This document shows, piece after piece, positions 31,199 to 64,000 of a stretch of DNA of 64,000 nucleotides; positions within the stretch are counted from its first letter, which is position 1, and every line of letters begins with the position of its first letter. The stretch is from Singulisphaera sp. GP187 (GTDB taxonomy: Bacteria; Planctomycetota; Phycisphaerae; Phycisphaerales; SM1A02), in NCBI GenBank assembly GCA_945871915.1, contig CAMBXO010000014.1:2124-66123 (forward strand), given 5' to 3'. A program made the position numbers and the translations under genes. The notes below the pieces were generated by a model. It was not told the DNA's origin, did no database searches, and saw only the letters and a program-made list of their open reading frames with translations.

Positions 31199-32323
31199 TC
31201 AGGGCTGACTTGCCTTGCGAAGCACCTGACGCTCGTCCTCGGAAAGACTCTGCAGCCCCTTCTGCCTGATCTTGTCAAGAATGCGGTCGATCTCAGCCGC
31301 GGCGACCACGCCACGAGCGCGGCTGCTTCGAACACGACGAGATTGACTGGTCGGATCCACTCGCCCCATCCAATCGAACAACGCGTGAAGCGTGTCGGGG
31401 TTTCGGATCAACCAAAATCCTGCAATGGCTCCACCAAGATGTGCCGCTTCGCCACCCGCATTCGCGGTGCCGAAAAAGATGCTCACCAGCGCCAACCCCA
31501 CCAATCCATATGCCAGCGTTCGCAATTGCATGGGTAAGACAAAGAACAGCAGCACCATGGATCGAGGCGAGAGAAACGCTGCAGCCATGATCACACCAAA
31601 GACTCCTGCACTGGCACCCACCAGCGGCGTGGTGGGATCATTCACCAGCAGAAATGGAATGTGCAGGGTCGGCTTCCACATGGCGATCTGGGTTCCAAGA
31701 AAGTTCAGCACCAAATACATCGCCGCTCCGCAGATTCCGCAGAGCAGATAAAAGGCGGCGTAGCGTTTGGAACCTAGGTATCGCTCAGCGACTGGACCAA
31801 AGAACCACAGCCCCATCATGTTGAAGATCAGGTGGGTCATGTCAGCATGTAAAAACTGAAATCCGATGAATCGCCATACTTGTGGGAATCCACTTCCACC
31901 GCCACTGTTGCCCATCAACGCCGTTGAGGTACTGAAATGAAGCAGTGATTTCAGTGGCGTGGTTGGAATCGAAAACGCAAATCCAACAATGGCTCCTTGG
32001 CTTTCGAGTGCTTGAACCCGCAATTGACTGTTGGCAAGGTGCGCTCGCTGTGCTGCAACAATGAGCACCGGCCCCCATTCCTGCGCGGCTCGCGATAGGG
32101 GCAATGGTTCGGTGACCAGTTTCCACCGGGCACCCTCTGCAGGAGCGGACGCTCCATCAAGCGTGATGCGCTCAACCTCAATAACGCTCTTGGCTGCTTT
32201 CCCTAAGAACCCGTCAAGAACGAACACCGCAATGCAAATGCCAATAATCCAACTGTTCACGCTCCACGAGGCAGCTCGCGAGCGCGACACGGAACGGTTC
32301 CATTCTCGATCTGCAAAACCCAT
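31199..32323 (-). CDS. rhomboid-family intramembrane serine protease with long L1 loop and conserved C-terminal tail motif
   Basis: FLHADMTHLIFNM (HxxxN), VGASAGVFG (GxSG Ser) and AHLGGAIAGF (His) are all intact. The C-terminus reads AAEIDRILDKIRQKGLQSLSEDERQVLRKAS. Confidence 0.9.
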   Translation of the reverse strand: MGFADREWNRSVSRSRAASWSVNSWIIGICIAVFVLDGFLGKAAKSVIEVERITLDGASAPAEGARWKLVTEPLPLSRAAQEWGPVLIVAAQRAHLANSQLRVQALESQGAIVGFAFSIPTTPLKSLLHFSTSTALMGNSGGGSGFPQVWRFIGFQFLHADMTHLIFNMMGLWFFGPVAERYLGSKRYAAFYLLCGICGAAMYLVLNFLGTQIAMWKPTLHIPFLLVNDPTTPLVGASAGVFGVIMAAAFLSPRSMVLLFFVLPMQLRTLAYGLVGLALVSIFFGTANAGGEAAHLGGAIAGFWLIRNPDTLHALFDWMGRVDPTSQSRRVRSSRARGVVAAAEIDRILDKIRQKGLQSLSEDERQVLRKASQP

Positions 32324-32332
32324 TGTTCGAGG

Positions 32333-33346
32333 CTAGCGATTGCCCCCACCGCCGTCACGCCTTCGTCGCGTGGCCGCTCGCAATTTCCATTTCTCTCGAA
32401 AAGAAAGACTGGCCATTCCGCCTCGATTGATTTTTTCCAGAATCCGATCGATTTCCACTTTGTCATCGGCTTGCCGCGGGGTTGGAACTCGATCCGTTGG
32501 AGCATGCAACTCAAAAGCATCGGAACTCTCTGCACGCACCAGCGTTTCGCGGCTTGAAATCCACACCACCAAGGCAGCCGCCACCAGCATCCAATAATCA
32601 AACGCAAGCGACGCCACCAACAACAGGACGGCGACGACCACACCAGACTTTGCGGTGGTGCGTGCGGCTTCGCTCCATGAAAGCCTTTGTTGAAGACGAG
32701 CCATCAGGACTCTTCCACCAGTAAGCGGAAACGCCGGCAGGAGTTGCAATGACAGCGAGACCATGTTGCACCACTGCAGCAACCACAGCGTTTCAATCAA
32801 CCAGCCAGAATGCGTTAGGGAGAGAACCCGAAAGCCTTCAAGGGACCATGGCATGGGGATCGCACCATCCACGAAGCGACCAGTCTTCCATGCCAGCACG
32901 ATCCCAAGGAGCAACCCAAGAACGGCTTGCCACATCCACGCTGCCGCGGCAACCCATGTCGAGGGTGCTTGCCCGTTATCCCGTGGCGTGGCATTGGACA
33001 GGCCACCAAGCGGCCACAACAACCACTCATCTAGGTCGCTTCCCGATTTTCGCAGTGCAGAAGCTCGAACCGCTTCGTGAAACCACGCCAGCAGAAAACA
33101 GCAGGCCAGCGCCGTTGCTGTAGGAGCCCAAGCCAAAGAACGGGCTCCACCGGTCATGCTGGCACGCAGAAGTTCGACCACTGCGATCAGCAGAAAGACC
33201 GCGTGAATGCGTAAGGACACTCGACCCATGCGAGCCAGATGAATCGACCAGGTCATGGGTGATTCGAACTTTGCTTGCGGGCTTCTGAAATCTCCCTCAA
33301 GGCCCCCAGGTTGCTGGTCAGATTCATGGTCTCGCCACGAAGTCAT
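32333..33346 (-). CDS. site-2-protease (M50)-like membrane protein with substituted metal ligands (predicted inactive)
   Basis: M50 layout is present, but HExxH reads HEAVR, and LLPAFPLTGGRVL replaces the canonical LLPxxPLDGGR. The C-terminus reads VEIDRILEKINRGGMASLSFREKWKLRAAT. Start at ATG 33346 is uncertain (the ORF track extends to 33562). Confidence 0.72.
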   Translation of the reverse strand: MTSWRDHESDQQPGGLEGDFRSPQAKFESPMTWSIHLARMGRVSLRIHAVFLLIAVVELLRASMTGGARSLAWAPTATALACCFLLAWFHEAVRASALRKSGSDLDEWLLWPLGGLSNATPRDNGQAPSTWVAAAAWMWQAVLGLLLGIVLAWKTGRFVDGAIPMPWSLEGFRVLSLTHSGWLIETLWLLQWCNMVSLSLQLLPAFPLTGGRVLMARLQQRLSWSEAARTTAKSGVVVAVLLLVASLAFDYWMLVAAALVVWISSRETLVRAESSDAFELHAPTDRVPTPRQADDKVEIDRILEKINRGGMASLSFREKWKLRAATRRRRDGGGGNR

Positions 33347-33427
33347 GTCAGGCTCCTCGCCGAGGACACCATACAGCCAACACCTTCGCGGCACCGTTCT
33401 CCCAAGATCGTTCGGAACGGTGGTTGC

Positions 33428-34270
33428 ATGCACGCCATGATTGGGGATGATACGGCGGTGGCCGCACAACTTCCTTTCGCTCTTCGGGTCGCCAATCTCC
33501 ACAAAGCCTTTGGTTCGCTCAAAGTTCTGCAAGGCGTCACGCTGAACATTCCGCGGGGCCAACAGATGGTGATCATGGGACCCAGCGGCTGCGGCAAGAG
33601 CGTGCTTCTGCGATCCTTGATTGGATTAGAACGAATCGACCGGGGTGAAGTGCATTTTGGTTCGCAGCGCATCGACACGCTGGACGAACTCGCACTCCGT
33701 CCGATTCGCTTACGAGTGGGGTTTCTCTTTCAACAGAGTGCGTTGTTTGACTCGCTTTCGGTGCGGGAGAATGTCGGATTCCCGCTGGTGGAACATGGCA
33801 TGGTCCTGGATTCAGAGGTGGATGATCGAGTTCACACCATGCTTCGCTTGGTGGGGCTTGAAGACAAACTCAATGAAATGCCGGCAACACTCTCTGGCGG
33901 GCAACGCAAGCGGGTGGCGCTGGCTCGGGCAATTGTTCTGCACCCCGAAGTGATTATGTACGACGAGCCGACGACCGGCCTTGACCCCATCACCGCTGAC
34001 TTGATCAATGAACTCATTCTTAAACTGGCCTCCGAACTGGGAATCACCAGCGTGATCGTGACCCACGATCTGGCCAGTGCATTCAAAGTGGGCAATCGCA
34101 TTGTGATGCTGCACGACGGTGTGGTTCGACACGAAGCCGACACCGCTTCGTTTGGGGCAAGTTCTGATCCTGTGGTCATTCGTTTCCTGAAGGGCGAGGC
34201 CAATCCTGAAGAACTTGCTGAAATCAATCGTGGCCATGGCTCCGACACAACAACGGCGACTTCCGCATAG
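33428..34270 (+). CDS. ABC transporter ATP-binding protein, MlaF/Mkl-like
   Basis: GPSGCGKS, LSGGQRKRVALARAI and MYDEPTTGLDP. Start re-picked to ATG 33428. Confidence 0.85.
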   Translation: MHAMIGDDTAVAAQLPFALRVANLHKAFGSLKVLQGVTLNIPRGQQMVIMGPSGCGKSVLLRSLIGLERIDRGEVHFGSQRIDTLDELALRPIRLRVGFLFQQSALFDSLSVRENVGFPLVEHGMVLDSEVDDRVHTMLRLVGLEDKLNEMPATLSGGQRKRVALARAIVLHPEVIMYDEPTTGLDPITADLINELILKLASELGITSVIVTHDLASAFKVGNRIVMLHDGVVRHEADTASFGASSDPVVIRFLKGEANPEELAEINRGHGSDTTTATSA

Positions 34271-49941: not shown

Positions 49942-51144
49942 ATGACCAGCACCGCCCAGCAATCCGTCTCCGCCATGGATCATTCCACTGATCCACTGGC
50001 CCTGATCGATGTGGATCACATCCGATTTTTGGTTGGCAATGCCAAGCAAGCCGCCACCTTTTATGCGACCGCATTTGGATTTCAAGTTGAGCAGATCTGC
50101 GACCTCACCACAGGAAATCGCACCTCCGCGAGATATCTTCTCACGCAAGGCAACATCCGACTGCTTCTTGAAACACCATTAAGCAAAGACGCTCCTGGTG
50201 CAGACGAACTTCGCAACTACGGCGACGGTGTGAAGGACATCGCCATGACGGTGTTTGATGCCACCAAGGCGTACGAGCAAGCACTCCGCAATGGCGGCAC
50301 CAGTGCCTATGAGCCGATTGTGGTCAGCGACGCACATGGCTCGGTCACCACCGCTGCGGTGAATACTTATGGGCGAGTGATTCACACCTTTGTCAGCCGA
50401 AGCGGGCAATACATGCTTCCAACAGTCAAGGCTGGTGGCACTTTTATGCCCGGATACCGCCCGATGGGACATTTCGCTCTGAATGACTACAACCGGCAGC
50501 ACCCCTGCGGACTGAAGTTCTTCGATCACTGCGTTGGCAATGTGGAAGAAGGCAAGATGAATGTGTGGGTGAAGTGGTATGAAGATGTGCTTGGGTTCAA
50601 AATGTTTAAGCACTTCGACGATAAGGACATTGGGACGGAATATTCGGCGCTGATGAGCAAAGTGATGGCCAGCGGAAACCATCTCATCAAAATGCCGATC
50701 AACGAACCCGCTTCCGGCAAGCGCAAGAGTCAGGTGCAGGAATATCTGGATTGGCACGACGGGGCACCCGGCGTGCAGCACTTAGCCATGCGCACCGACG
50801 ATGAATTGCACAGCGTTGCGGAATTGCGCCGCCGAGGTGTGGACTTCTTGGAAATTCCCCATGCGTATTACGAATCCGTGTGGAAACGCGTTGAGGCCAT
50901 GCTGAAATCCCACGGCCATGCAAGCGTGAAGGAAGACCACCAACGCGTGCGTGATCTTGGCATTCTTGTGGACGCCGACGACGAGGGCTATCTGCTTCAA
51001 TTGTTTACCAAGCCACTGCAGGATCGCCCGACCCTTTTCTTCGAGATCATTTGTCGAAGAGGAAGTCAGAGTTTTGGCAAAGGCAATTTCAAGGCTCTCT
51101 TTGAAGCGCTTGAATTGGAGCAGGACAAGCGCGGAAATCTTTGA
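49942..51144 (+). CDS. hppD: 4-hydroxyphenylpyruvate dioxygenase
   Basis: Two VOC modules, HLAMRTDD, QLFTKPLQDRPTLFFEIICR and GKGNFKALFEALELEQ.KRGNL. Confidence 0.92.
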   Translation: MTSTAQQSVSAMDHSTDPLALIDVDHIRFLVGNAKQAATFYATAFGFQVEQICDLTTGNRTSARYLLTQGNIRLLLETPLSKDAPGADELRNYGDGVKDIAMTVFDATKAYEQALRNGGTSAYEPIVVSDAHGSVTTAAVNTYGRVIHTFVSRSGQYMLPTVKAGGTFMPGYRPMGHFALNDYNRQHPCGLKFFDHCVGNVEEGKMNVWVKWYEDVLGFKMFKHFDDKDIGTEYSALMSKVMASGNHLIKMPINEPASGKRKSQVQEYLDWHDGAPGVQHLAMRTDDELHSVAELRRRGVDFLEIPHAYYESVWKRVEAMLKSHGHASVKEDHQRVRDLGILVDADDEGYLLQLFTKPLQDRPTLFFEIICRRGSQSFGKGNFKALFEALELEQDKRGNL

Positions 51145-54623: not shown

Positions 54624-55882
54624 TGGTTCGCAGCACGCGAGGCGGCAACGAAGTGCCACTTTCGCAGGCGATCTTGCAGGGACTCGCACCCGATGGCGGA
54701 TTGTTCATGCCGCCGCAAATTCCGAAACAAACTGGGCCGTGGGGTCACGGGTTGGTGGCACAGGCTGAACAGATTCTCGCACCGTATTGTGCGGGCGACA
54801 CACTGGCAACGCACCTGCACACCATGTTGCACGAAGCGTTCACCTTTCACGCTCCGACGGCGTGGCTCACTCCCACCACCGGTCTGCTTGAACTCTTTCA
54901 CGGACCCACCGCCGCCTTCAAGGATTTCGGCGCGCGATTTCTTGCGGCGGCCATGCACCGACTGATTCCCGTTGGTTCGATGAATACGATTCTGGTTGCA
55001 ACCAGTGGCGACACCGGCGCGGCCGTGGCCTCGGCATTCCAATCGTTGCCGGGCTTTCGAGTGATCATTCTTTATCCCAGTGGTCGGGTGTCGCCGCGAC
55101 AGGCCCACCAACTTGGAGCCTTTGGCGACACGGTGCGAGCGTGTGAGGTGCAAGGAACCTTTGACGATTGCCAGCGCCTCGTCAAGGAAGCGTTTGCCGA
55201 TCCAGTGTTGCGTGCATCGCATCGCCTGACATCAGCCAACAGCATCAGTCTTGGACGATTGCTTCCGCAAATCACATACTTTGCGCATGCTGCGATGGAG
55301 AGTGTTGCATCCGGCCACGGCGTTCCGTCGTTTGTGGTGCCCACCGGAAACCTTGGCAATGCATTGGCCTGCATGCTGGCCCGCGAAGCGGGGTTTCCCA
55401 TTGATCGCGTGGTGTGTGCCACCAACGCAAACCGAGCGATCGCCGATCTTGCATTCACGGGACGCTACGCACCTGCACACACAATCGCCACGCTGGCCAA
55501 CGCCATGGATGTGGGTGCACCAAGCAATGTTGAGCGGCTTCTGCATCGAATTTCAAATGATGGAACACCGCTGGAAGCTGATTGGGTGGATGACGCGTCC
55601 ATTCGTAAAGTCATCACGCAGACTTTTGCTGATTTTGGGCGAGCCATTTGCCCGCATACGGCCTGCGGTGTCGAAGTGCTGCGCCGACTGCGTCAGACAG
55701 GTACCACAGGAACATGGATTGTGGCAGCGACCGCGCACCCAGCAAAATTTCAAAGCATCGTTGAACCACTCATCGGCACCTCGATTCCCATGCCGCCGTC
55801 GCTGGCAACCTTGCTGGCTCAACCGACCATCAGCGAGCCGCTCGAACCAGCCCTTCATGCCTTGGCTCGAATACTTGCCTAG
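54620..55882 (+). CDS. thrC: threonine synthase
   Basis: LSQAILQGLAPDGGLFMP, the FHGPTAAFKDFG PLP-lysine motif, and ATSGDTGAA. ATGA overlap with thrB. Confidence 0.92.
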   Translation: MMVRSTRGGNEVPLSQAILQGLAPDGGLFMPPQIPKQTGPWGHGLVAQAEQILAPYCAGDTLATHLHTMLHEAFTFHAPTAWLTPTTGLLELFHGPTAAFKDFGARFLAAAMHRLIPVGSMNTILVATSGDTGAAVASAFQSLPGFRVIILYPSGRVSPRQAHQLGAFGDTVRACEVQGTFDDCQRLVKEAFADPVLRASHRLTSANSISLGRLLPQITYFAHAAMESVASGHGVPSFVVPTGNLGNALACMLAREAGFPIDRVVCATNANRAIADLAFTGRYAPAHTIATLANAMDVGAPSNVERLLHRISNDGTPLEADWVDDASIRKVITQTFADFGRAICPHTACGVEVLRRLRQTGTTGTWIVAATAHPAKFQSIVEPLIGTSIPMPPSLATLLAQPTISEPLEPALHALARILA

Positions 55883-57324
55883 CGGGCGGTCGCCAAACCA
55901 AAGAGTTGATTGAGATTCTGTGCGGAGTCCAAGGCCATGATGCACTGTTGCAGTTTGGCGCACGCATCCTTGCCAATCACTTCGCCGCCAAGAGCGGTGA
56001 ACTTGACCGCAATCTCTTCTTCAGTCATCGGGTCGCGAGGGTCGCCCTTGGGCACATCCACACGGGTGGAATGGGACGCGCCGCTGTGGGTGATGATGGT
56101 CACGCGGCTTGGCTGAAATTTGGGAAAGAGAGCCTCGAATTCCTGATTGGCAATCACTTTCACCTTGTCCATGATCGGAATCAGTTTCTTGTCAAGGACT
56201 CGTTCTTCCTTAAATTGAAGCGGCGTCACCATGCCATCCACCAATCCGGCGGCCATGCAATAAGGCAATGAATGGTCGGCGGTTTCCTTGGAGTCGGGGC
56301 GATACTTGTGGGGGTCACCCAGAATGTCGGCGGCCCTGGCAATCACCTCGACCTGAATTTCTTTCACATCATCGGCGTGCAAATTGTGCTGCTTGACGGT
56401 CTTCATCATCGCCGTCAGCGGCGCGTGACTGAGCGCTTCAATTGGGAAACTCTTCATGCCGCAATCCACAATGCGGTAGTGGCCCGCCGTCGAAGTGGGA
56501 AGATCAGCCACCAACGCTTTGGCATCAAAGGTGGCGGGCTGACCCTTGTACTGCACATGATTGAACACGGCAAAGAGGCCTTCCTTTCCATCGATGATGT
56601 GCTCTGGACCAGAAAACCCACCCCGAGCAAGCAAGGCACTTTCCGCACCCATGCGACCAGCCCACGGGTCGACGGTGTTCTTCATGTTGGTCAACTTTCC
56701 AGCCGTGACCGCGCCGGGACAAAATGTTCGAGACGCGCTGATGCCCATGGCCGCTACCAATTGAGCCGGCGAAAGATTCAGCACTCGGCCCGCCGCAAGT
56801 GGCGCTGCAAAGGCACTCAGTGTTGCATGGTGCCAGCCGTATTCGCGAATGCCAGGTTGCCCAACTTCACACAGTCTCATTTCAATTTCGTAGGCAATGA
56901 TTGTGGCCACGATGAGTTCCCTGCCGCCAAGCCCCTCGCTCTGGCACAGTGCCAGCGGTGCCGCAATCAGATCGCTCGGATGACACGGATCGGACTTCCA
57001 ATAGATGTCGTTGTAGTCCATGGCCCGAATCATGTGACCGTTCAGAAACGATGCGTCGACCGGATTGGTTTTGAACCCACTCACAAAGCAGGTCGCCGAG
57101 CCAGTCGCACCTGCAGCGGCGCCACCCATGGCGCGATAGTGCTTCAATAAAATCTTGGCATCGTCTTGCTGACTGCCACCGAGCGCGCAACCGATCGAGT
57201 CGAACCAGAACAACTTGGCTGCTTGAATAGCCGCCGGCGAAAGATGTTCGTACTTCAACGAGCAGGCCCACTCGGCCAGCGTGTGCGAGAGAAGACGCTT
57301 GGAATCTGTTGGATGATGATTCAT
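55879..57324 (-). CDS. MmgE/PrpD-family protein (2-methylcitrate-dehydratase-like)
   Basis: Typical length (481 aa) and N-terminal layout (LAEWA..L.YE.L...A...AK....D.IGCALGG), plus conserved WH..T/S segments. Confidence 0.85.
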   Translation of the reverse strand: MNHHPTDSKRLLSHTLAEWACSLKYEHLSPAAIQAAKLFWFDSIGCALGGSQQDDAKILLKHYRAMGGAAAGATGSATCFVSGFKTNPVDASFLNGHMIRAMDYNDIYWKSDPCHPSDLIAAPLALCQSEGLGGRELIVATIIAYEIEMRLCEVGQPGIREYGWHHATLSAFAAPLAAGRVLNLSPAQLVAAMGISASRTFCPGAVTAGKLTNMKNTVDPWAGRMGAESALLARGGFSGPEHIIDGKEGLFAVFNHVQYKGQPATFDAKALVADLPTSTAGHYRIVDCGMKSFPIEALSHAPLTAMMKTVKQHNLHADDVKEIQVEVIARAADILGDPHKYRPDSKETADHSLPYCMAAGLVDGMVTPLQFKEERVLDKKLIPIMDKVKVIANQEFEALFPKFQPSRVTIITHSGASHSTRVDVPKGDPRDPMTEEEIAVKFTALGGEVIGKDACAKLQQCIMALDSAQNLNQLFGLATAR

Positions 57325-57383
57325 AAATACTCCGTAAGTCGTTCTACACAGTCATTGGGGTTCAGCGTCGACCGCACCGTCAC

Positions 57384-58538
57384 TTACGCCGTGGCATACG
57401 CACCGATGGCTTGAGCCATTTCAAGTGTGGAGGCTTTGCCACCCATGTCATAGGTTCGAACTTTGCCTTCTACAATCACCCGTGCAATGGCCGCTTCGAG
57501 TCGCGTGGCCATATCCGTTTCCTTGAGCCAGTCCAGCATCATCTTGGCGGTGAGCAACATGGCAATTGGATTCACCTTGTATTGGCCGGAGTACTTGGGT
57601 GCGGAACCGTGTGTGGGTTCAAACACGGCGTAGGTGTCGCCCAGATTGGCGCTGGGTGCAAACCCCAACCCTCCAATGAGACCGGCGCACAAATCACTCA
57701 CAATGTCGCCGAACATATTTTCAGCCACCAGCACCGAATAATCCTGAGGGTTCTTGAACATCCACATGCAGATGGCATCAATGTTGGCTTCGTCCGCCCA
57801 GATGTCCGGGTAACTCTTGGCCACTTCCCGGAAGCAACGCGTCATCAGGCCACCCGTCTCTCGCAACACATTGGGTTTTTCGATCAATGTCACACGCTTG
57901 CGACCGGTCTTCTTGGCAAATTCAAACGCCTGCTTGCAAATGCTGGTGCATCCTTGCTTGCTCACAATCCGCGTGGACAACGCGACATGCTCTAAGCCCT
58001 TGGCTTTCCACGGCTTCATTTTTGGATTTGCACATAGGGCTTCATACACCGACTCCGGCAATGGGAAGAACTCCACGCCTCCATACATGCCCTCCGTGTT
58101 TTCTCGAAACACCACTTGATCGATCTTGACATCTTCGCCACTGGGATTGGTGATCTTGTTGCCTCGATAATTCAAAGGGTTTCCCGCATAACTCTTGCAC
58201 GGCCGCATGTTGGTGTGCAGATTGAACATCTGCCGCAATTTCACAATGGGCGAGAAGTACACCAAGCCCTTGTCCTTGAGCGATGGAATGAGCTCTTCCT
58301 TCGCTTCATCCTGCGGTTTACTGGTGATGGCCCCAAAGAGGCCGCAGGTGGTTCCCTTCAGGGCGGCCACAGTGCGGTCGGGAAGGGCGTTGCCCTCATT
58401 GCACCAGAACTCCCAGCCAATATCGCATCGCACATATTCCGCGTCAAAACGCAACTGATCTAAGACGCCTCGTGTGGCCTCCATGACATCGTTGCCAACA
58501 CCGTCTCCGGGCATCCACGCAATTTTGTATTTCGACAT
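57384..58538 (-). CDS. Icd-type beta-decarboxylating dehydrogenase (isocitrate/isopropylmalate dehydrogenase superfamily)
   Basis: PGDGVGNDV, VFRENTEGMY, GDIVSDL and EPTHGSAPKYSGQYKVNP closely parallel E. coli Icd (EATHGTAPKYAGQDKVNP). The substrate loop reads SPIVKLRQ instead of SLNVALRQ. Confidence 0.85.
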   Translation of the reverse strand: MSKYKIAWMPGDGVGNDVMEATRGVLDQLRFDAEYVRCDIGWEFWCNEGNALPDRTVAALKGTTCGLFGAITSKPQDEAKEELIPSLKDKGLVYFSPIVKLRQMFNLHTNMRPCKSYAGNPLNYRGNKITNPSGEDVKIDQVVFRENTEGMYGGVEFFPLPESVYEALCANPKMKPWKAKGLEHVALSTRIVSKQGCTSICKQAFEFAKKTGRKRVTLIEKPNVLRETGGLMTRCFREVAKSYPDIWADEANIDAICMWMFKNPQDYSVLVAENMFGDIVSDLCAGLIGGLGFAPSANLGDTYAVFEPTHGSAPKYSGQYKVNPIAMLLTAKMMLDWLKETDMATRLEAAIARVIVEGKVRTYDMGGKASTLEMAQAIGAYATA

Positions 58539-58589
58539 TCGGTACGCGTCCTTTGGGTGTAAATTCTGGATCGAAGAAGTTGCGAAATG

Positions 58590-60563
58590 CTACAGCACTC
58601 GCAGCCGCGAGGCGACAAGCTGTTCCGCACCTCCCGCCACGATCAATTCTTGCGCCGCGGGGCTTAGCGGTGAGAAAGCAAACGACTTTCCATCCATTTG
58701 CAGGGTTGACGAACCGTAATCAATGGACAGATGACCTGCGACGGTGGTTGGTGCAGTACGCCCAACCGAAGCACGAAGGTGCGCGACAAGTGCCGGGCAC
58801 TCAAAGACCACAAACCCGTTATTGAAAGCATTGCGCTTATAGGTCTCCGAAAAGCTGCTCGCAATCACACAGGGAATCCCTTTAAACTTGAGCGCGGTCG
58901 CCGCTTGTTCACGACTGGATCCGGTTCCAAAGTTCAGCCCCCCCACCACAATGTCACCCTTGGCATATAGGGCGTTGAACTGTGGGTCGTAATTCTCAAA
59001 GGTCACCGCAGCCATCTGCTCTGGGGACAAGTCGTCCCGGTATGTGTGTTTTCCGGCGTAGATGCCATCGGTGTTCAAATTGTCTTTGTCAACAAACAGA
59101 ACGCGACCTTGCACACGGCCCGGAAATCCGGCGACAATTTCAACTGTGGTTGCGGCCGCAGGCGCCGGCACCGATCGACGCACCATGGTTGCAGCCGCTC
59201 GATCAGAAAACTCGTGTGGGGAACAAATAAATCCAGCCAACGCGCTCGCTGCGACCACCGCCGGCGATCCCAAGTACACCTGCGCACTTGGGTCACCCAT
59301 ACGGCCCTTAAAATTTCGATTGGTGGCGCTGATGGCCACTTCGCCCTTGCCAACCAATCCCTTCCCAAGTCCGATGCATGTTCCGCAACCCGGCGGAAGC
59401 GGAATCGCACCAGCATCCGTAAGCGTCTTCCAGTCACCGGCAGCTTCACTCTTGGCCTGCACTTCTGCACTGGCCGCAGCAAGATAAAACTCCACACCCG
59501 TTGCCACGTGGCCTCGTTTGTTTCGAACGACCTCCGCGGCCTCATGCAAATCCTCCAACCGTGCATTCACGCATGAGAGCAAGTACGCCTTCTGAATCGC
59601 AACCCGCTGTTTTTGAATGTGAGGCAACGACACCATGGTCTTGACTTCATTGGGGCCTGCGACATGCGGCACCACCGTGGCAAGATCCAATTCCAACTCA
59701 ATGGCATATTCCGCGTCGCTGTCTGCCGTCAGATTGGCGCGATCCTTCCACCATGCGTCGATGGCGGCGTTCGAATAGCCCGATCGACTCTGTGGCCCGC
59801 GGGTCCCCGGCCGCAAGAGATTGGTGAAGGTGCCAACGCGTGAACGTAAATACTCCACCGTCACTTCATCAAAAGGAAAGACACCGGCCAGCGCACCCCA
59901 CTCAGTCGTCATGTTGGCGATGGTCATCCGCGAATCCATCGACAGATGCGAAAGACCATCGCCCACAAATTCGACGGCGTGGTTGAGCACTTCGTCGTTG
60001 TTGAATAATCCGCAGAGCGCAATGATGACATCCTTGCCAGTGACACCACTCCGCAACCGGCCCGTCAGGCGTACGCGAGCCACCGCAGGCACCTGCCACC
60101 ACGTCACGCCGGTCGCCCAAATGCTGGCCGCGTCTGTTCGCACCACCGGCGTACCGAGTGCGGCCACCGCTCCATACAAATTGGAATGCGAATCACTTCC
60201 AACCACCAAGGAGCCCGGCACCACATACCCCTGCTCCACCATCACCTGATGCGAAATGCCTGTCCCCGGCGGATAAAAATCCACGCCATGCTCCTTCGCA
60301 AAGGCCTGAATTTTGGCGTACTTCGCCACATTTTCTGGCGTGACATTTTGAATGTCGTGGTCGATCGCAAAGACCGGTTGCGGTGGGTCCACAATGCGAG
60401 TGGCCCCCATCTGCCGAAATTTTGGAATAACCGCGCCGGTGTTGTCATGCGTCATCACATGCCTAGGGCGAATGCTGATGAAGTCACCTGCACGCACCAC
60501 GGCACCAGAACGCAATCCATCCGCATGACGGGCGGCAATTTTTTCAACCAGCGTAAGACCCAT
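58590..60563 (-). CDS. aconitase-family hydro-lyase, fused catalytic + swivel domains (657 aa)
   Basis: GSDSHS, Fe-S ligand motifs LSCVNAR and GCGTCIG, NRNFKGRMG, and a C-terminal LeuD-like swivel (GGLNFGTGSSREQA). Confidence 0.85.
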   Translation of the reverse strand: MGLTLVEKIAARHADGLRSGAVVRAGDFISIRPRHVMTHDNTGAVIPKFRQMGATRIVDPPQPVFAIDHDIQNVTPENVAKYAKIQAFAKEHGVDFYPPGTGISHQVMVEQGYVVPGSLVVGSDSHSNLYGAVAALGTPVVRTDAASIWATGVTWWQVPAVARVRLTGRLRSGVTGKDVIIALCGLFNNDEVLNHAVEFVGDGLSHLSMDSRMTIANMTTEWGALAGVFPFDEVTVEYLRSRVGTFTNLLRPGTRGPQSRSGYSNAAIDAWWKDRANLTADSDAEYAIELELDLATVVPHVAGPNEVKTMVSLPHIQKQRVAIQKAYLLSCVNARLEDLHEAAEVVRNKRGHVATGVEFYLAAASAEVQAKSEAAGDWKTLTDAGAIPLPPGCGTCIGLGKGLVGKGEVAISATNRNFKGRMGDPSAQVYLGSPAVVAASALAGFICSPHEFSDRAAATMVRRSVPAPAAATTVEIVAGFPGRVQGRVLFVDKDNLNTDGIYAGKHTYRDDLSPEQMAAVTFENYDPQFNALYAKGDIVVGGLNFGTGSSREQAATALKFKGIPCVIASSFSETYKRNAFNNGFVVFECPALVAHLRASVGRTAPTTVAGHLSIDYGSSTLQMDGKSFAFSPLSPAAQELIVAGGAEQLVASRLRVL

Positions 60564-60566
60564 GCG

Positions 60567-61181
60567 CTACTTCTTTGTGGCTCGCTTGCCCAGCCACTTT
60601 GCAATGTCAAAGTCCACAAAGTCCGCATGATGGAAAATGATCGATTCGACCGACCGCTCCATCTTGTCCCCTTCGTGGCTATGCGTAGCAATGATGTGCA
60701 TGACTTCGCCTGGAATGCCGTGCTTGTACGCCAAAGCCACCCCTGTAAATGGATGGCGAACTTGCTGGCCAAAAGTTCCCTGAATCACTTTGCCTGATGC
60801 GTCCTTGTCAAATTCAAGTGGCTTGCCAACATCGGCCAGCAGCGCGCCGGCAATGAGCACATCCCGTTGAATCGGAATACCGCACCGAAAGGAACGCTCC
60901 AACACATCCGCAATGGCCATGCATTGCAGCACACACGAATTCAGATGCTCGACAAAGGTCATGTCAATGTCGCCCGCAAGCAGCGTAAATTTGACCGCCC
61001 GCAATTCATCAAAGGTCCATCCCTTGCCTCCGCAACCCGAATGAATGGCTTCGTTCCACACCGCCGCGACTCGTTCACGCAGACTGCGATCGCCGATCTT
61101 GTGCAGGCTGGGAAAGAGTTCCGCGATTTCGTTTACACCAAAGGTTGTCCGTGCAGGTGAGGTCATGGTGGTCATCGGCAT
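60567..61181 (-). CDS. HD-superfamily domain protein with variant metal motif
   Basis: H...(30)...GALLADVGKP...HP....THSHEG...HHADFVD. The canonical HD doublet reads AD. Confidence 0.68.
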   Translation of the reverse strand: MPMTTMTSPARTTFGVNEIAELFPSLHKIGDRSLRERVAAVWNEAIHSGCGGKGWTFDELRAVKFTLLAGDIDMTFVEHLNSCVLQCMAIADVLERSFRCGIPIQRDVLIAGALLADVGKPLEFDKDASGKVIQGTFGQQVRHPFTGVALAYKHGIPGEVMHIIATHSHEGDKMERSVESIIFHHADFVDFDIAKWLGKRATKK

Positions 61182-61184
61182 ACT

Positions 61185-62897
61185 TTACGAGGTCATGGTT
61201 CGCGGCGCAGGCCCGTCGTAGCCATGGTGAACTGGGTCAATTCGACGCATCGGTTTTTCACGCGACTGTTCTTCAATGGCGTGTGCCAGAAGTCCAGGCG
61301 TGCGTGCAATCATGAACATGCCGTTAAGAGCGGCGGAATCCATGCCAACATCGGCAAGAATGGCGCCGATGGCTCCATCCACATTGATCGGCAATGGTTT
61401 CTTGGCCGCTGCAAACCACTTCTCTACGGCGCGGGCTGCTTGCATATGCACACCCTCAACGCCCGCTTCGGCTGCCAACGCAAACAACCTTGCCGTGCGG
61501 GGGTCCTTGGTGTGGTAGCGATGACCGAAGCCTGGCATTCGATCGCCCGCCTCCTTCATGGCTGCAAGTTCACACGCAGCGGCTTCGTCCATGGACACAC
61601 GATCCGTGGCACAACGATCCGCGATCCTTTTCAACTGTCGTGCGCAATCTTCGATCGCACCACCATGGTGCTGATTGATCGACAAGATTCCGGCCGCTAC
61701 CGCCGCATTGAGCGAGGCACCGGTGGAGGCCACCGTCCGCGCCGCCAGCGCACTCGGTGGCGTAGCGCCATGATCAATCGATGCCACCAACACAGCATCC
61801 ATCAACTTTCCGATCGCCGCGGTTGGCAATTCACCCTTCAGAATCAGGTACACCGCGCTGCCAAAGGACACTCGCCCCATCAGGTCGGCAATGTCATACC
61901 CCCGCACTGCCACTTTGTTGGGCTCGATGCGTGTCACCGCAGAGTTCCACAGAGCATTCTTGTCGGTTTCGCTCATCAGGCTTTGCCCTTTCATTCTCTT
62001 GAGTCTTTCCACCACGGCTTCTGGTAGTTCTCCAAACGCATCCACCACCGTTGCACCTGCGTCGCGCAACGCTTTCACTTTTCCGGCGTGCGTGCCGCGA
62101 CCATTTTCAATCATGGCACCAGCATGGCTAAAACGCGTGCCCTCGCGAGCCGCTTTGCCACCGATGTACGCAATCACCGGTTTGGTGACTTTGCGATCGC
62201 GAATCAGGCCGGCGAGTTCTTCTTCCTGTGACGAACCAATCTCGCCAAAAATCACAATGGCCTCGGTCAACGGATCGGCTTCAAACATCAGGGCCGCATC
62301 AGGAATCCGAATGCCCAGCACCGCATCGCCACCAAGATGCACAATCGTTGAAATGCGAACGCCCGCTTGCCCGAGGTAATACCCCGTGCTTGAGGCCATT
62401 CCACCAGAACGACTAATCACACCAACACCTGCGGGCAACCCGGGCTTGAACCATTGTTTCGCACTCTCGGCGCGCCCACCAATCATTCCAACCACCGCCT
62501 TGCCCGGACTCAACACTCCAAGCGTGTTCGGACCAAGAAATCGAGCGTGATTCAATTTGGCCGCAGCGGCAATTTCCATCGCATCCCACACCGGCACTCG
62601 ATCCGCAACAAGAACGGTGAGTTTGATTCCCGCTTCGATCGCTGCAATCGCGGCATCTTTCACGCCAAGCGCTGGCACAAATAGAACGGAGATATCCATT
62701 TCACCCAACTGGGCCACCGCTTCCGCGGGCGTGTTGAAGACCGGCACGCCAAGGACGGACTGACCACCCTTTCCTGGCGTGACACCGGCGACCACTTGGG
62801 TTCCATACTCACGCATCAGGCGGGTGCGAGCCAATCCCTCACGGCCCGTCATGCCCTGCACCAACACTCGTTTCGTTTCGTCAATCAGGATGGCCAT
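61185..62897 (-). CDS. SucD-like CoA-ligase alpha subunit fused to a citrate-synthase-like (citryl-CoA-lyase-type) domain
   Basis: The N-terminal ~290 aa are collinear with E. coli SucD ([34 protein letters not shown], phospho-His loop FSHAGAM). The C-terminal ~270 aa carry [24 protein letters not shown] and NVDG, as in the short citrate-synthase / Ccl / ACL C-domain. Confidence 0.85.
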
Positions 62898-64000
62898 TTA
62901 TCGCAAGCCTCCGACGGTTACTGGAGACACGCTCGACCGAGTCGGAAAGAGAAGTTCATCAAGCCCGGGAATATCCAATTCAAGAAAGAATCCCTCCACG
63001 CCTGCAAGCCTGCACTCGACATCACATGCAAGCAATTCCGAATCCTTGCCTGCAAATTCTTCCATCGACACCGAAGCGGTCGGTACACCTTGACGGTCCA
63101 CGATCAATCCGCCGGAATGCATTTCAACGGCGCGGTGAATCTGCCGCCATTGGTGGGCATCCATCCAGACTCGACCACCTTTGACTGGCAACATGATGGC
63201 CGACGAATCCTTTACAAACGACGGCACCTTGGGCTTTCGAGGTGTCCATCGACCGCCACCGGAACTTTGGATTAGTTCAGACAACCGAGCCGCAATCTTG
63301 GCGGGTGCATCGCTTTTGCGATAGCCCTCGATGGGTGCCCCAAGCACGCGTGCCATGCGATGCAAAATGTCCACGGCGCGGTCTTCGGTATTTCCGCCAA
63401 GGCGGATGACGGCAGGAATATCCAGATCAAGTTCCCAAAAGGCTTTGGCCAATCCATAGGCGGACCAATACTGTTCCTGACTTGCCACGCCTGACCCCGA
63501 TCCGAAATACCCAACAACATCCGGTTGGGACAAAATGATGCGACTGGCTCGATACACCTTGCTTGCAGATGGATTTCCGCTGGTGTCTGTGAAATTGGCA
63601 ATCGTGAAGCCAGCATTCACAATCGCATCCATGGACATCATGGACCCGCCGCCGCCAGCACCATGGAACCCAATCAATCCGTGAGTACCAGAAGCCGCAG
63701 CTGTTGCCAACTGTGCAAAGTAAAACGTGCCGCGATGGTCCTGCTGTTCAACCGCATACGCCACTCGCTCAAGTTGCGTTGGCGGGTGATCAAACTCCCG
63801 GGCAATCTCGATGCCAAGGTCCGGGTGGCGAACCACCGCATAGTCGTCAATGGTGATGCGGCAGTCCGCGGCCACCATCACGCCAGACTGTGTCAGTGCA
63901 AGTGGATTGATCTCAAGCGACCGAGCTTCCACTGCGCGAGCCGCCGCAAATAATTTTTGAATCGATTCGCTCAATAACGTTGCCTGCGCAGGCGATTCAC
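62898..64000 (-). CDS. SucC-like ATP-grasp CoA-ligase beta subunit, partial (N-terminus beyond window), with a 122-aa C-terminal extension
   Basis: The frame is open to the window edge. LEINPLA, the CoA-ligase domain [17 protein letters not shown] and ANFTDTSG are present. The stop abuts the start of the next gene. Confidence 0.8.

Follow-up and report, generated by a model that had tools for sequence, protein, structure and literature searches.

A six-gene operon of Chthoniobacterales combining an ATP-citrate-lyase-like pair with homoaconitase- and homoisocitrate-dehydrogenase-type enzymes: a candidate homocitrate branch with a link to lysine catabolism

What is the substrate of an operon in which an enzyme pair resembling ATP-citrate lyase (ACL) is encoded together with an aconitase-family dehydratase, a β-decarboxylating dehydrogenase, an MmgE/PrpD-family protein and a protein of the HD family? 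The operon lies at one end of a 64,000-nucleotide stretch of contig CAMBXO010000014.1 (assembly GCA_945871915.1, positions 2,124 to 66,123), which we call the window and which was deposited as Singulisphaera sp. GP187; the host organism is a Chthoniobacterales bacterium (Verrucomicrobiota). A first-pass annotation, made from the letters alone, had suggested an undescribed tricarboxylate pathway at this place. The six same-strand genes that it described, here a to f, were confirmed with gaps of 0, 3, 3, 51 and 59 nt (a-b, b-c, c-d, d-e and e-f), and the Pfam E-values of the set span 1e-8 to 1e-106. The tricarboxylate route itself was supported in part; the homoaconitase equivalog assignment of d and the substrate loop of e make homocitrate and homoisocitrate likelier intermediates than citrate or 2-methylcitrate. 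We tentatively favour the reading that the operon encodes a homocitrate-type (C7-tricarboxylate) branch interconverting 2-oxoadipate plus CO2 and acetyl-CoA plus 2-oxoglutarate, in which the flux probably runs in the cleavage direction, as the lower half of lysine/2-aminoadipate catabolism. There is a substantial chance that the operon represents a new pathway.

The product of gene d (58590-60563, minus strand, 657 aa) is, by model, a fused Fe-S dehydratase of the type of fungal Lys4, the homoaconitase. It reaches 736.5 bits against the homoaconitase equivalog TIGR00139 (cutoff 529.9), and its ortholog in the distant locus L093 reaches 709.3 bits, while d stays below the cutoff of every aconitase model in NCBIfam. 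The Pfam domains Aconitase (PF00330, 5e-106) and Aconitase_C (PF00694) are united in one chain, and the three cluster-binding cysteines, which the first-pass annotation had already pointed out, align with those of M. jannaschii HacA (PDB-code: 4kp2). Among the solved structures, methanogen HacA (M. jannaschii) and isopropylmalate isomerase (IPMI) score 225-226 bits, compared to 157 bits for mitochondrial aconitase. A canonical AcnA (about 1340 bits, 984-1026 aa) adjoins the cluster in two relatives (L036:6782-9736, minus strand; L049:4235-7315, plus strand), and d is therefore not needed as the aconitase of the tricarboxylic acid (TCA) cycle. The possibility that d is the only aconitase of the organism, which would have spoken for ordinary central metabolism, is thus not borne out.

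The adjacent gene e (57384-58538, minus strand, 384 aa) encodes a β-decarboxylating dehydrogenase (Pfam Iso_dh, 3e-81) with a substrate loop that reads YFSPIVKLRQ. The S-P-I-V stretch of this loop is identical in the solved homoisocitrate dehydrogenase (HICDH) of S. pombe (PDB-code: 3ty3; YSSPIVALRK), while the corresponding loops are FSSINVAMRR in the isocitrate dehydrogenase (ICDH) 6ltf and FGAIRYLRR in Thermus thermophilus HICDH. Gene e thus has isoleucine at the position of the γ-carboxylate-binding asparagine of ICDH, which agrees with the altered pocket noted in the first-pass annotation, and valine at the position of Thermus Arg-85. In work by Miyazaki in 2003, the exchange R85V is said to have abolished the activity with isocitrate while the activity with homoisocitrate was retained. 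The stretch FSPIV is invariant in 41 orthologs of e, and for us this loop decides in favour of a homoisocitrate-type substrate, which e would probably recognize. The models for NADP-dependent isocitrate dehydrogenase are not reached (TIGR00183: 167 bits, cutoff 567; NF005425: 149 bits, cutoff 490). In the cofactor loop, e has GSAPKYSG compared to GSAPDIAG in the aligned NAD-dependent HICDH and NAD-ICDH sequences. The Lys-Tyr pair presumably matches Lys-344 and Tyr-345 of E. coli NADP-ICDH, the determinant of NADP use, and such a loop would fit an NADPH-driven reductive step.

The ligase/lyase part of the operon is formed by genes a and b. Gene b (61185-62897, minus strand, 570 aa) is a fusion of an α subunit, with the Pfam domains CoA_binding (PF02629) and Ligase_CoA (PF00549), and a citryl-CoA lyase (CCL) domain (Citrate_synt, 3e-39), and it is annotated in genomes as the α subunit of succinyl-CoA synthetase. 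The motifs FSHAGAM, HGGA, GFGHR, DPR and NVDG are all present, including those quoted in the first-pass annotation. FSHAGAM aligns with the phospho-histidine loop MGHAGAI of the SucD structures, and the four remaining motifs align with Hydrogenobacter CCL (PDB-code: 6hxp; 187 bits). The protein clears the cutoffs of three citryl-CoA-lyase subfamilies in NCBIfam, with scores of 256 on NF004866 (cutoff 245) and 252 on NF004869 (cutoff 212), while its score of 261 on the SucD model NF004230 is below the cutoff of 336. Compared with solved structures, the α part is closest to Aeropyrum SucD (252 bits), followed by Chlorobium AclA (183 bits) and Hydrogenobacter CcsB (151 bits), and the lyase domain scores 185-187 bits against Hydrogenobacter citryl-CoA lyase but about 74 bits against the lyase module of AclA.

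Gene a (62898 to beyond 64000, minus strand) encodes an ATP-grasp β subunit, which is cut by the window end with its reading frame still open. A longer contig of the same organism, L001, contains the complete gene (L001:8417-10000, 527 aa), so that about 160 N-terminal codons lie outside the window. In a profile search the full-length protein matches PF08442, PF13549 and, weakly, PF16114. It is composed of the ATP-grasp region, a carboxylate-binding domain of the citryl-CoA synthetase (CCS)/ACL type and a C-terminal extension of about 130 aa (window 62898-63300) that is not covered by any Pfam family; the distant β subunits of loci L097 (427 aa) and L088 (386 aa) are shorter by about 100-140 aa. 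The scores against solved structures are 153 bits for Thermus SucC, 108 bits for Hydrogenobacter CcsA and 79 bits for Chlorobium AclB, and a shares with Hydrogenobacter CcsA a PT..E...DHRG insert and an ANFTD..GNP motif, both of which are absent in SucC. By score, a and b fall outside the AclBA and CcsAB clades, with the α subunit nearer to SucD and the β subunit nearer to SucC. The first-pass annotation had assigned to this pair the logic of CCS plus CCL, or of a two-subunit ACL, and the comparison of sequences supports that logic in what appears to be a separate lineage. A search of 1.84 billion representative proteins gave a single further cluster with a full-length fusion more than 50% identical to b; after it, identity drops to 39%, 37% and 36% for the fusions that come next and to 33% for an AclA-like protein. 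L088, one of the fused relatives at 36-39%, stands alone without partner genes, and nothing could be learned from the genes around the stand-alone relatives P0133, P0145 and P0149.

The pair has the same set of domains and the same catalytic motifs as CcsAB plus Ccl of Hydrogenobacter thermophilus and as AclBA. It differs from these systems in its closer relation to SucD and SucC, in the additional C-terminal residues of the β subunit, in its homoaconitase- and HICDH-type partners and in its aerobic, heterotrophic hosts. Earlier work had recorded ccsB-ccl fusions in Planctomycetes, positioned between CCS/CCL and a postulated type II ACL (PMC5459899; PMC3522073; PMC6783814). The arrangement, with a ccsA-like gene in front of the ccsB-ccl fusion, is the same in these “heterodimeric” and type II ACLs (Hugler & Sievert 2011; Thiel 2017), which come from the same PVC superphylum, but they were read as citrate-cleaving enzymes of the reductive TCA (rTCA) cycle of autotrophs. 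The component families and an ACL-like architecture within the PVC group were hence already known. What is new is the combination of an ACL-like pair with enzymes of the Lys4 and Lys12 types, a divergent member of the PrpD family and a conserved HD partner, together with the link to lysine catabolism.

Is the HD protein a passenger of the operon? The protein encoded by c (60567-61181, minus strand, 204 aa) matches Pfam HD (PF01966, 35.5 bits, cutoff 22) and TIGR00277 (31.5 bits, cutoff 27.6). Its His-Asp dyad reads Ala-Asp (LLADVGK), and Ala-116 and Asp-117 are invariant in 20 aligned orthologs. No sequence in the PDB matches c at E<=1, and a single-sequence AlphaFold model was poor (pLDDT 45). 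In locus L097 an HD gene (L097:5344-5922; 34% identity to c, E = 8e-30) is followed by a fused dehydratase of the IPMI/Hac type, a β subunit and an α/CCL protein. L182 has a stand-alone CCL that shares 51% identity with the lyase domain of b and is directly followed by an HD gene (L182:1175-1717; 40% identity, E = 2e-38). An open reading frame located after the CCL-like gene of L089 was considered as another HD homolog and rejected, as it is not homologous. ACL-like, HD and aconitase-like genes are thus found together in three deep lineages (as a-b-c-d here and in L093/L094, in L097, and as CCL-HD in L182). Because its homologs stand beside CCL-like and aconitase-like genes in L097 and L182, c is a conserved partner of such genes and not a passenger, and the HD protein was rightly listed among the linked members of the operon. 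The linkage of lyase, HD protein and dehydratase is old. It argues for a common substrate family of lyase and dehydratase, and hence for a/b and d acting on the same family of tricarboxylates; the types of d and e then point to the C7 series of homocitrate, cis-homoaconitate and homoisocitrate. Gene c would be a conserved accessory protein tied to the lyase and dehydratase genes. The members of this HD subfamily are only 34-40% identical across the three lineages; the homologs in L097 and L182 keep the canonical His-Asp dyad, of which the Chthoniobacterales members have lost the histidine.

For gene f (55879-57324, minus strand, 481 aa), which had been listed as a dehydratase of the MmgE/PrpD family, the family assignment stands, with both MmgE_PrpD_N and MmgE_PrpD_C present, but the protein is a divergent member. 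It is far below the cutoffs of the PrpD equivalogs (88/950, 62/575 and 47/458), and among solved structures it is nearer to IDS-epimerase (99 bits) and cis-aconitate decarboxylase (79 bits) than to PrpD (<=40 bits). Work by Fazius in 2012 reportedly found that Lys4-type enzymes catalyse only the half-reaction between cis-homoaconitate and homoisocitrate, with which a second dehydratase-family gene in the operon is consistent. We regard f as a candidate for the step between homocitrate and cis-homoaconitate.

The operon is conserved well beyond the window. The window matches a contig of a metagenome-assembled genome (MAG) in GCA_947444915.1, and a scan of species-representative genomes with b found 80 loci whose copies of b are 81-87% identical. 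Almost all of them bear the label Chthoniobacterales, Spartobacteria, Ca. Udaeobacter or Verrucomicrobiota. Three loci carry the labels Planctomycetia (L042), Nitrospirota (L073) and Singulisphaera (L081) at 82-84% identity of b, and L042 also shows the Chthoniobacterales order a-b-c-d; the probable cause is faulty binning or labelling of the MAG contigs. Clustering of the open reading frames around b in 82 loci gave a in 60, c in 42, d in 41, e in 34 and f, following e, in 16, and these counts are lower bounds since many contigs end early. The order of all six genes is intact on a 2.38-Mb scaffold (L087) as well as in L093/L094, where b is only 72% identical. In a second, independent sample of 80 metagenome loci anchored on d, c was present in 57 and e in 45; where at least 3.5 kb upstream of d were available (32 loci), b was present in 17 and missing in 15. 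The neighbourhood is therefore conserved in relatives in both samples. It is built from the units a-b, c-d-e and f, which adjoin each other in many genera but are separated in others, loci of Ca. Udaeobacter among them. The pair a-b is kept in every Chthoniobacterales locus, also in the streamlined Ca. Udaeobacter, and the finding that the units a-b and c-d-e are universal in an abundant order of heterotrophic soil bacteria is likewise new. Gene f is the least constantly linked member, so that the claim of linkage holds less well for the MmgE/PrpD protein than for the HD protein. With 83-92%, a to f are only a little better conserved in sequence than the catabolic genes nearby (78-87%), and the figure thus does not prove a role in central metabolism.

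The entry point of the pathway is suggested by the neighbouring genes. Lysine 6-transaminase (LAT; TIGR03251, 552-568 bits, cutoff 521) and L-piperideine-6-carboxylate/2-aminoadipate semialdehyde dehydrogenase (P6CDH; NF050084, 774-788 bits, cutoff 730), which together convert lysine to 2-aminoadipate, flank the cluster in 19 of the 82 loci, and this linkage is repeated in five of the metagenome loci anchored on d. In one arrangement, a to f are preceded by genes for a thiolase and an acyl-CoA dehydrogenase (ACAD) and followed by P6CDH, LAT, a gene x, ACAD655 and FadJ, all of which point in the direction opposite to a-f. In the other, ACAD655, LAT, P6CDH and b to f follow each other in the same direction, and a stands behind f in reverse orientation; here 31-33 nt separate the end of P6CDH from b, which lies on the same strand (L008 and L019). 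The junction of P6CDH and b, created by an inversion of b-f, is retained in at least eight species. This linkage indicates 2-aminoadipate/2-oxoadipate as the entry point. Other neighbours include a thiolase, a 390-aa acyl-CoA dehydrogenase, a short-chain dehydrogenase/reductase and a B12-dependent acyl-CoA mutase; in L034 such a mutase and a B12-binding/MeaB fusion (L034:401-3369) are located close to the thiolase and the acyl-CoA dehydrogenase, two genes that flank the cluster in many species. ACAD655, encoded beside LAT, was considered as a glutaryl-CoA dehydrogenase and rejected, as it is VLCAD/ACAD9-like.

In the homocitrate-type branch, e would reductively carboxylate 2-oxoadipate with NADPH and CO2 to homoisocitrate, which d would dehydrate to cis-homoaconitate. 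Hydration to homocitrate would be carried out by f or by the cellular AcnA. The ligase part of a and b would then use ATP and CoA, by way of the phospho-histidine loop, to form the CoA thioester of homocitrate, and cleavage of this thioester by the CCL domain of b would yield acetyl-CoA and 2-oxoglutarate. LAT and the transamination of 2-aminoadipate would draw on this 2-oxoglutarate as their amino acceptor. In the fungal α-aminoadipate pathway, the first half consists of the homocitrate synthase Lys20/21, aconitase plus Lys4, and Lys12. The operon resembles it in the Lys4 model score, in the Lys12-type loop and in the second dehydratase gene that accompanies d. It differs in that the ligase/lyase pair takes the place of a LeuA-type homocitrate synthase, in the NADP-type loop of e, in the linkage to the catabolic LAT and P6CDH, and in the bacterial host. 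Known lysine catabolism shares the upstream conversion by LAT and P6CDH to 2-aminoadipate, whereas the proposed carboxylation, isomerisation and ATP-dependent cleavage were not found in the literature searched, nor was any mention of a homocitryl-CoA intermediate, of a reductive carboxylation of 2-oxoadipate or of a homoaconitase in lysine catabolism. In its fullest form, the proposal would be that Chthoniobacterales degrade lysine through a reversed homocitrate branch without loss of carbon, by means of the first ATP-dependent homocitrate lyase, a citrate-synthase-fold enzyme that would handle 2-oxoglutarate, and with the HD protein as an obligatory partner; this is possible, but we hold it with considerable doubt.

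Several observations weigh against a homocitrate-type branch, among them the lyase domain of b, which keeps all catalytic and oxaloacetate-binding motifs of Hydrogenobacter citryl-CoA lyase and carries no sequence sign of a switch from oxaloacetate to 2-oxoglutarate. We know of no enzyme with the citrate-synthase fold that uses 2-oxoglutarate, and when the CCL domains of seven lineages were aligned, no residue pattern emerged that would separate possible 2-oxoacid specificities. In NCBIfam, e scores best on models for homoisocitrate dehydrogenase without reaching the cutoff of any (AksF2 324/540, AksF 279/500 and NF040855 147/680), these models being archaeal and NCBIfam having no model for fungal HICDH. 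Over its full length e is about equally close to NAD-ICDHs and HICDHs. The pair a-b is found apart from c-d-e in about half of the lineages: in Ca. Udaeobacter it is alone at its locus, and metagenome loci with c-d-e and without a-b exist. As for lysine, the two arrangements of LAT and P6CDH differ by a single inversion of b-f and hence are not independent, both genes are absent from the window, no 2-aminoadipate aminotransferase was identified near the cluster, and genes of β-oxidation (thiolase, acyl-CoA dehydrogenases and FadJ) share the same neighbourhoods. Finally, a reductive carboxylation together with the expense of one ATP would be a costly way to degrade 2-oxoadipate.

Could the operon instead act on citrate itself? 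In such an arm a and b would be an ACL-type enzyme for citrate, d an aconitase and e an NADP-ICDH with an unusual pocket, operating either oxidatively with conservation of ATP or in the direction of citrate cleavage; an ATP-conserving oxidative synthesis of citrate has reportedly been proposed for Desulfobacter. The CCL domain is about 50% identical to a genuine citryl-CoA lyase with all motifs conserved, the β subunit shares CCS-specific motifs, e carries the Lys-Tyr cofactor loop of NADP-ICDH, and CCS/CCL plus aconitase plus ICDH is the known logic of rTCA organisms. The presence of a-b in every Chthoniobacterales locus, Ca. Udaeobacter included, also agrees with it, as does the interpretation of the related fused genes of Planctomycetes as citrate-cleaving (PMC5459899). 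On the other hand, d passes the homoaconitase model and fails the aconitase models, e lacks the isocitrate-recognizing asparagine and has the HICDH loop, and relatives possess a separate AcnA. The rTCA partners (2-oxoglutarate and pyruvate ferredoxin oxidoreductases, fumarate reductase) are not among the annotated genes of the ±10-kb flanks, and the hosts, according to their description, are aerobic heterotrophs without a recognised ACL (bioRxiv 10.1101/053942). We therefore consider a citrate arm the main rival, though a somewhat unlikely one. Plain TCA housekeeping, against which the first-pass annotation had also argued, is rejected, given AcnA in relatives and the homo-type character of d and e. 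A search with the CCL, SucD and Icd domains (tblastn) against 1.58 Mb of cluster flanks found no further paralogs, a biased sample that allows no conclusion.

The same C7 series could also be run in the biosynthetic direction, from acetyl-CoA and 2-oxoglutarate to 2-oxoadipate for the supply of 2-aminoadipate or lysine, in which case CCL plus ligase would replace the LeuA-type homocitrate synthase and the thioester would be conserved as ATP. The fungal Lys4 and Lys12, which d and e resemble, run in this direction, and a Ca. Udaeobacter MAG was reported to be without a recognisable lysine pathway (PMC7343977). This direction is nevertheless improbable: no LysW/X/Z/Y/J/K-type, Lys2-type or LeuA-type genes are among the Pfam-labelled genes in the flanks of L001-L006 and L087, and the NADP-type loop of e is unlike the NAD-dependent biosynthetic HICDHs. 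Moreover, the reactions of the linked LAT and P6CDH are catabolic and effectively irreversible. We give just as little credence to another alkyl-tricarboxylate or itaconate-type chemistry, with f as a decarboxylase or isomerase, or with citramalate or methylcitrate as the substrate of a and b. It would agree with the closer relation of f to IDS-epimerase and cis-aconitate decarboxylase than to PrpD, and the hydrophobic recognition loop (YLAI) of the IPMI/Hac-type dehydratase in L097 hints at a varying 2-oxoacid partner. Gene e, however, requires a secondary alcohol beside a carboxylate and has a homoisocitrate-type loop, 2-methylisocitrate carries a tertiary alcohol and is no substrate for a β-decarboxylating dehydrogenase, and f is the gene least constantly linked. 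The methylcitrate cycle (PrpC, PrpD, AcnB/AcnD and PrpB) likewise combines an MmgE/PrpD protein with an aconitase-family enzyme, but here PrpB and PrpC are missing, and it is rejected because the chemistry of e is unfit and f fails the PrpD models. That the genes are neighbours by descent only and serve unrelated processes would agree with the separation of a-b from c-d-e in about half of the lineages and with the genes inserted in several loci (PIN toxins, a methyltransferase and a histidine-kinase-like ATPase), but it is highly improbable in view of the gaps of 0-3 nt, the survival of the six-gene order at 72% identity of b and the recurrence of the HD/CCL/dehydratase linkage in lineages that are only 34-40% identical.

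What would a homocitrate-type branch mean? Known fates of 2-oxoadipate are its conversion by a dehydrogenase to glutaryl-CoA and by HglS to 2-hydroxyglutarate (bioRxiv 10.1101/450254; 10.1101/2020.01.30.927905; PMC9367764). If the homocitrate reading is true, a third fate would stand beside these two, homocitrate would be a new substrate class for ACL/CCS-CCL and for the citrate-synthase fold, and lysine would be converted to glutamate and acetyl-CoA in a carbon-conserving, CO2-assimilating manner in oligotrophic soil bacteria. Chthoniobacterales are among the most abundant soil bacteria. If the citrate arm is true instead, abundant aerobic heterotrophs would universally carry an ACL-type enzyme that is annotated as succinyl-CoA synthetase and has not been recognised as ACL (bioRxiv 10.1101/053942), which would affect the reading of rTCA marker genes in soil metagenomes. 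In either case, the HD subfamily comes to notice as a conserved companion of CCL-like and aconitase-like genes. The supplements of the Ca. Udaeobacter paper contain no lists of TCA or lysine genes.

The adjacent d and e closely resemble fungal Lys4 and Lys12, as the equivalog is passed and the S-P-I-V substrate loop is identical. This likeness raises the question of whether bacteria were the source of the fungal lysine-pathway enzymes or whether the transfer went the opposite way, and the bacterial pair could be relevant to how the fungal lysine pathway arose.

With respect to its bounds, the array had been thought to continue past the window edge, but on L001 only the remainder of a lies beyond. 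Upstream (5') of a, a gene for a 536-aa protein with a CLP_protease domain is followed by unrelated genes, so that the operon consists of six genes, with no further extension and nothing metabolic beyond a. The gene of the 536-aa protein (L001:6735-8345) has the same orientation as a, from which 72 nt separate it, and recurs only in the same species; the long N-terminal half of the protein abounds in Ala, Gln, Leu, Glu and Lys and probably forms a coiled coil, and the C-terminal domain is ClpP/SppA-like. On the downstream side the operon converges on thrC-thrB-thrA, with an overlap of 4 nt between the 3' ends of f and thrC (window 55879-55882), and no terminator-like site was detected between the two genes. 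A scan of the cluster for promoters and terminators was uninformative. The G+C content of the operon is similar to that of the remaining window. Rfam families, including riboswitches, were absent near the cluster in seven loci, apart from one tRNA gene in L019 (L019:11839-11911), which stands directly after b where c-d-e-f are missing and may mark a site of rearrangement or integration.

Unrelated genes between cluster members show that the operon tolerates insertions: two PIN-domain toxins are encoded in L008 (L008:12615-13055 and L008:15454-15876), and further insertions are located at L013:11703-12452 and L007:12611-13486, the kinds seen being a methyltransferase and a histidine-kinase-like ATPase. 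The AcnA gene of L049 is preceded by one for a 164-aa protein that resembles thiol peroxidases/peroxiredoxins weakly and below the cutoffs (L049:3737-4231), and a 164-aa open reading frame is also found beside the AcnA copy of L036. Elsewhere in the window, a 400-aa protein of the Glyoxalase fold (49942-51144) has a C-terminal sequence resembling 4-hydroxyphenylpyruvate dioxygenase, and L001 carries FAA_hydrolase and HgmA_N genes (L001:243-4293), the latter a faint match to homogentisate dioxygenase; together these indicate genes of tyrosine breakdown near the operon in this organism. Two adjacent genes at window 31199-33562, one of them with a rhomboid domain, each end in a terminal DUF6576 and may be tandem paralogs.

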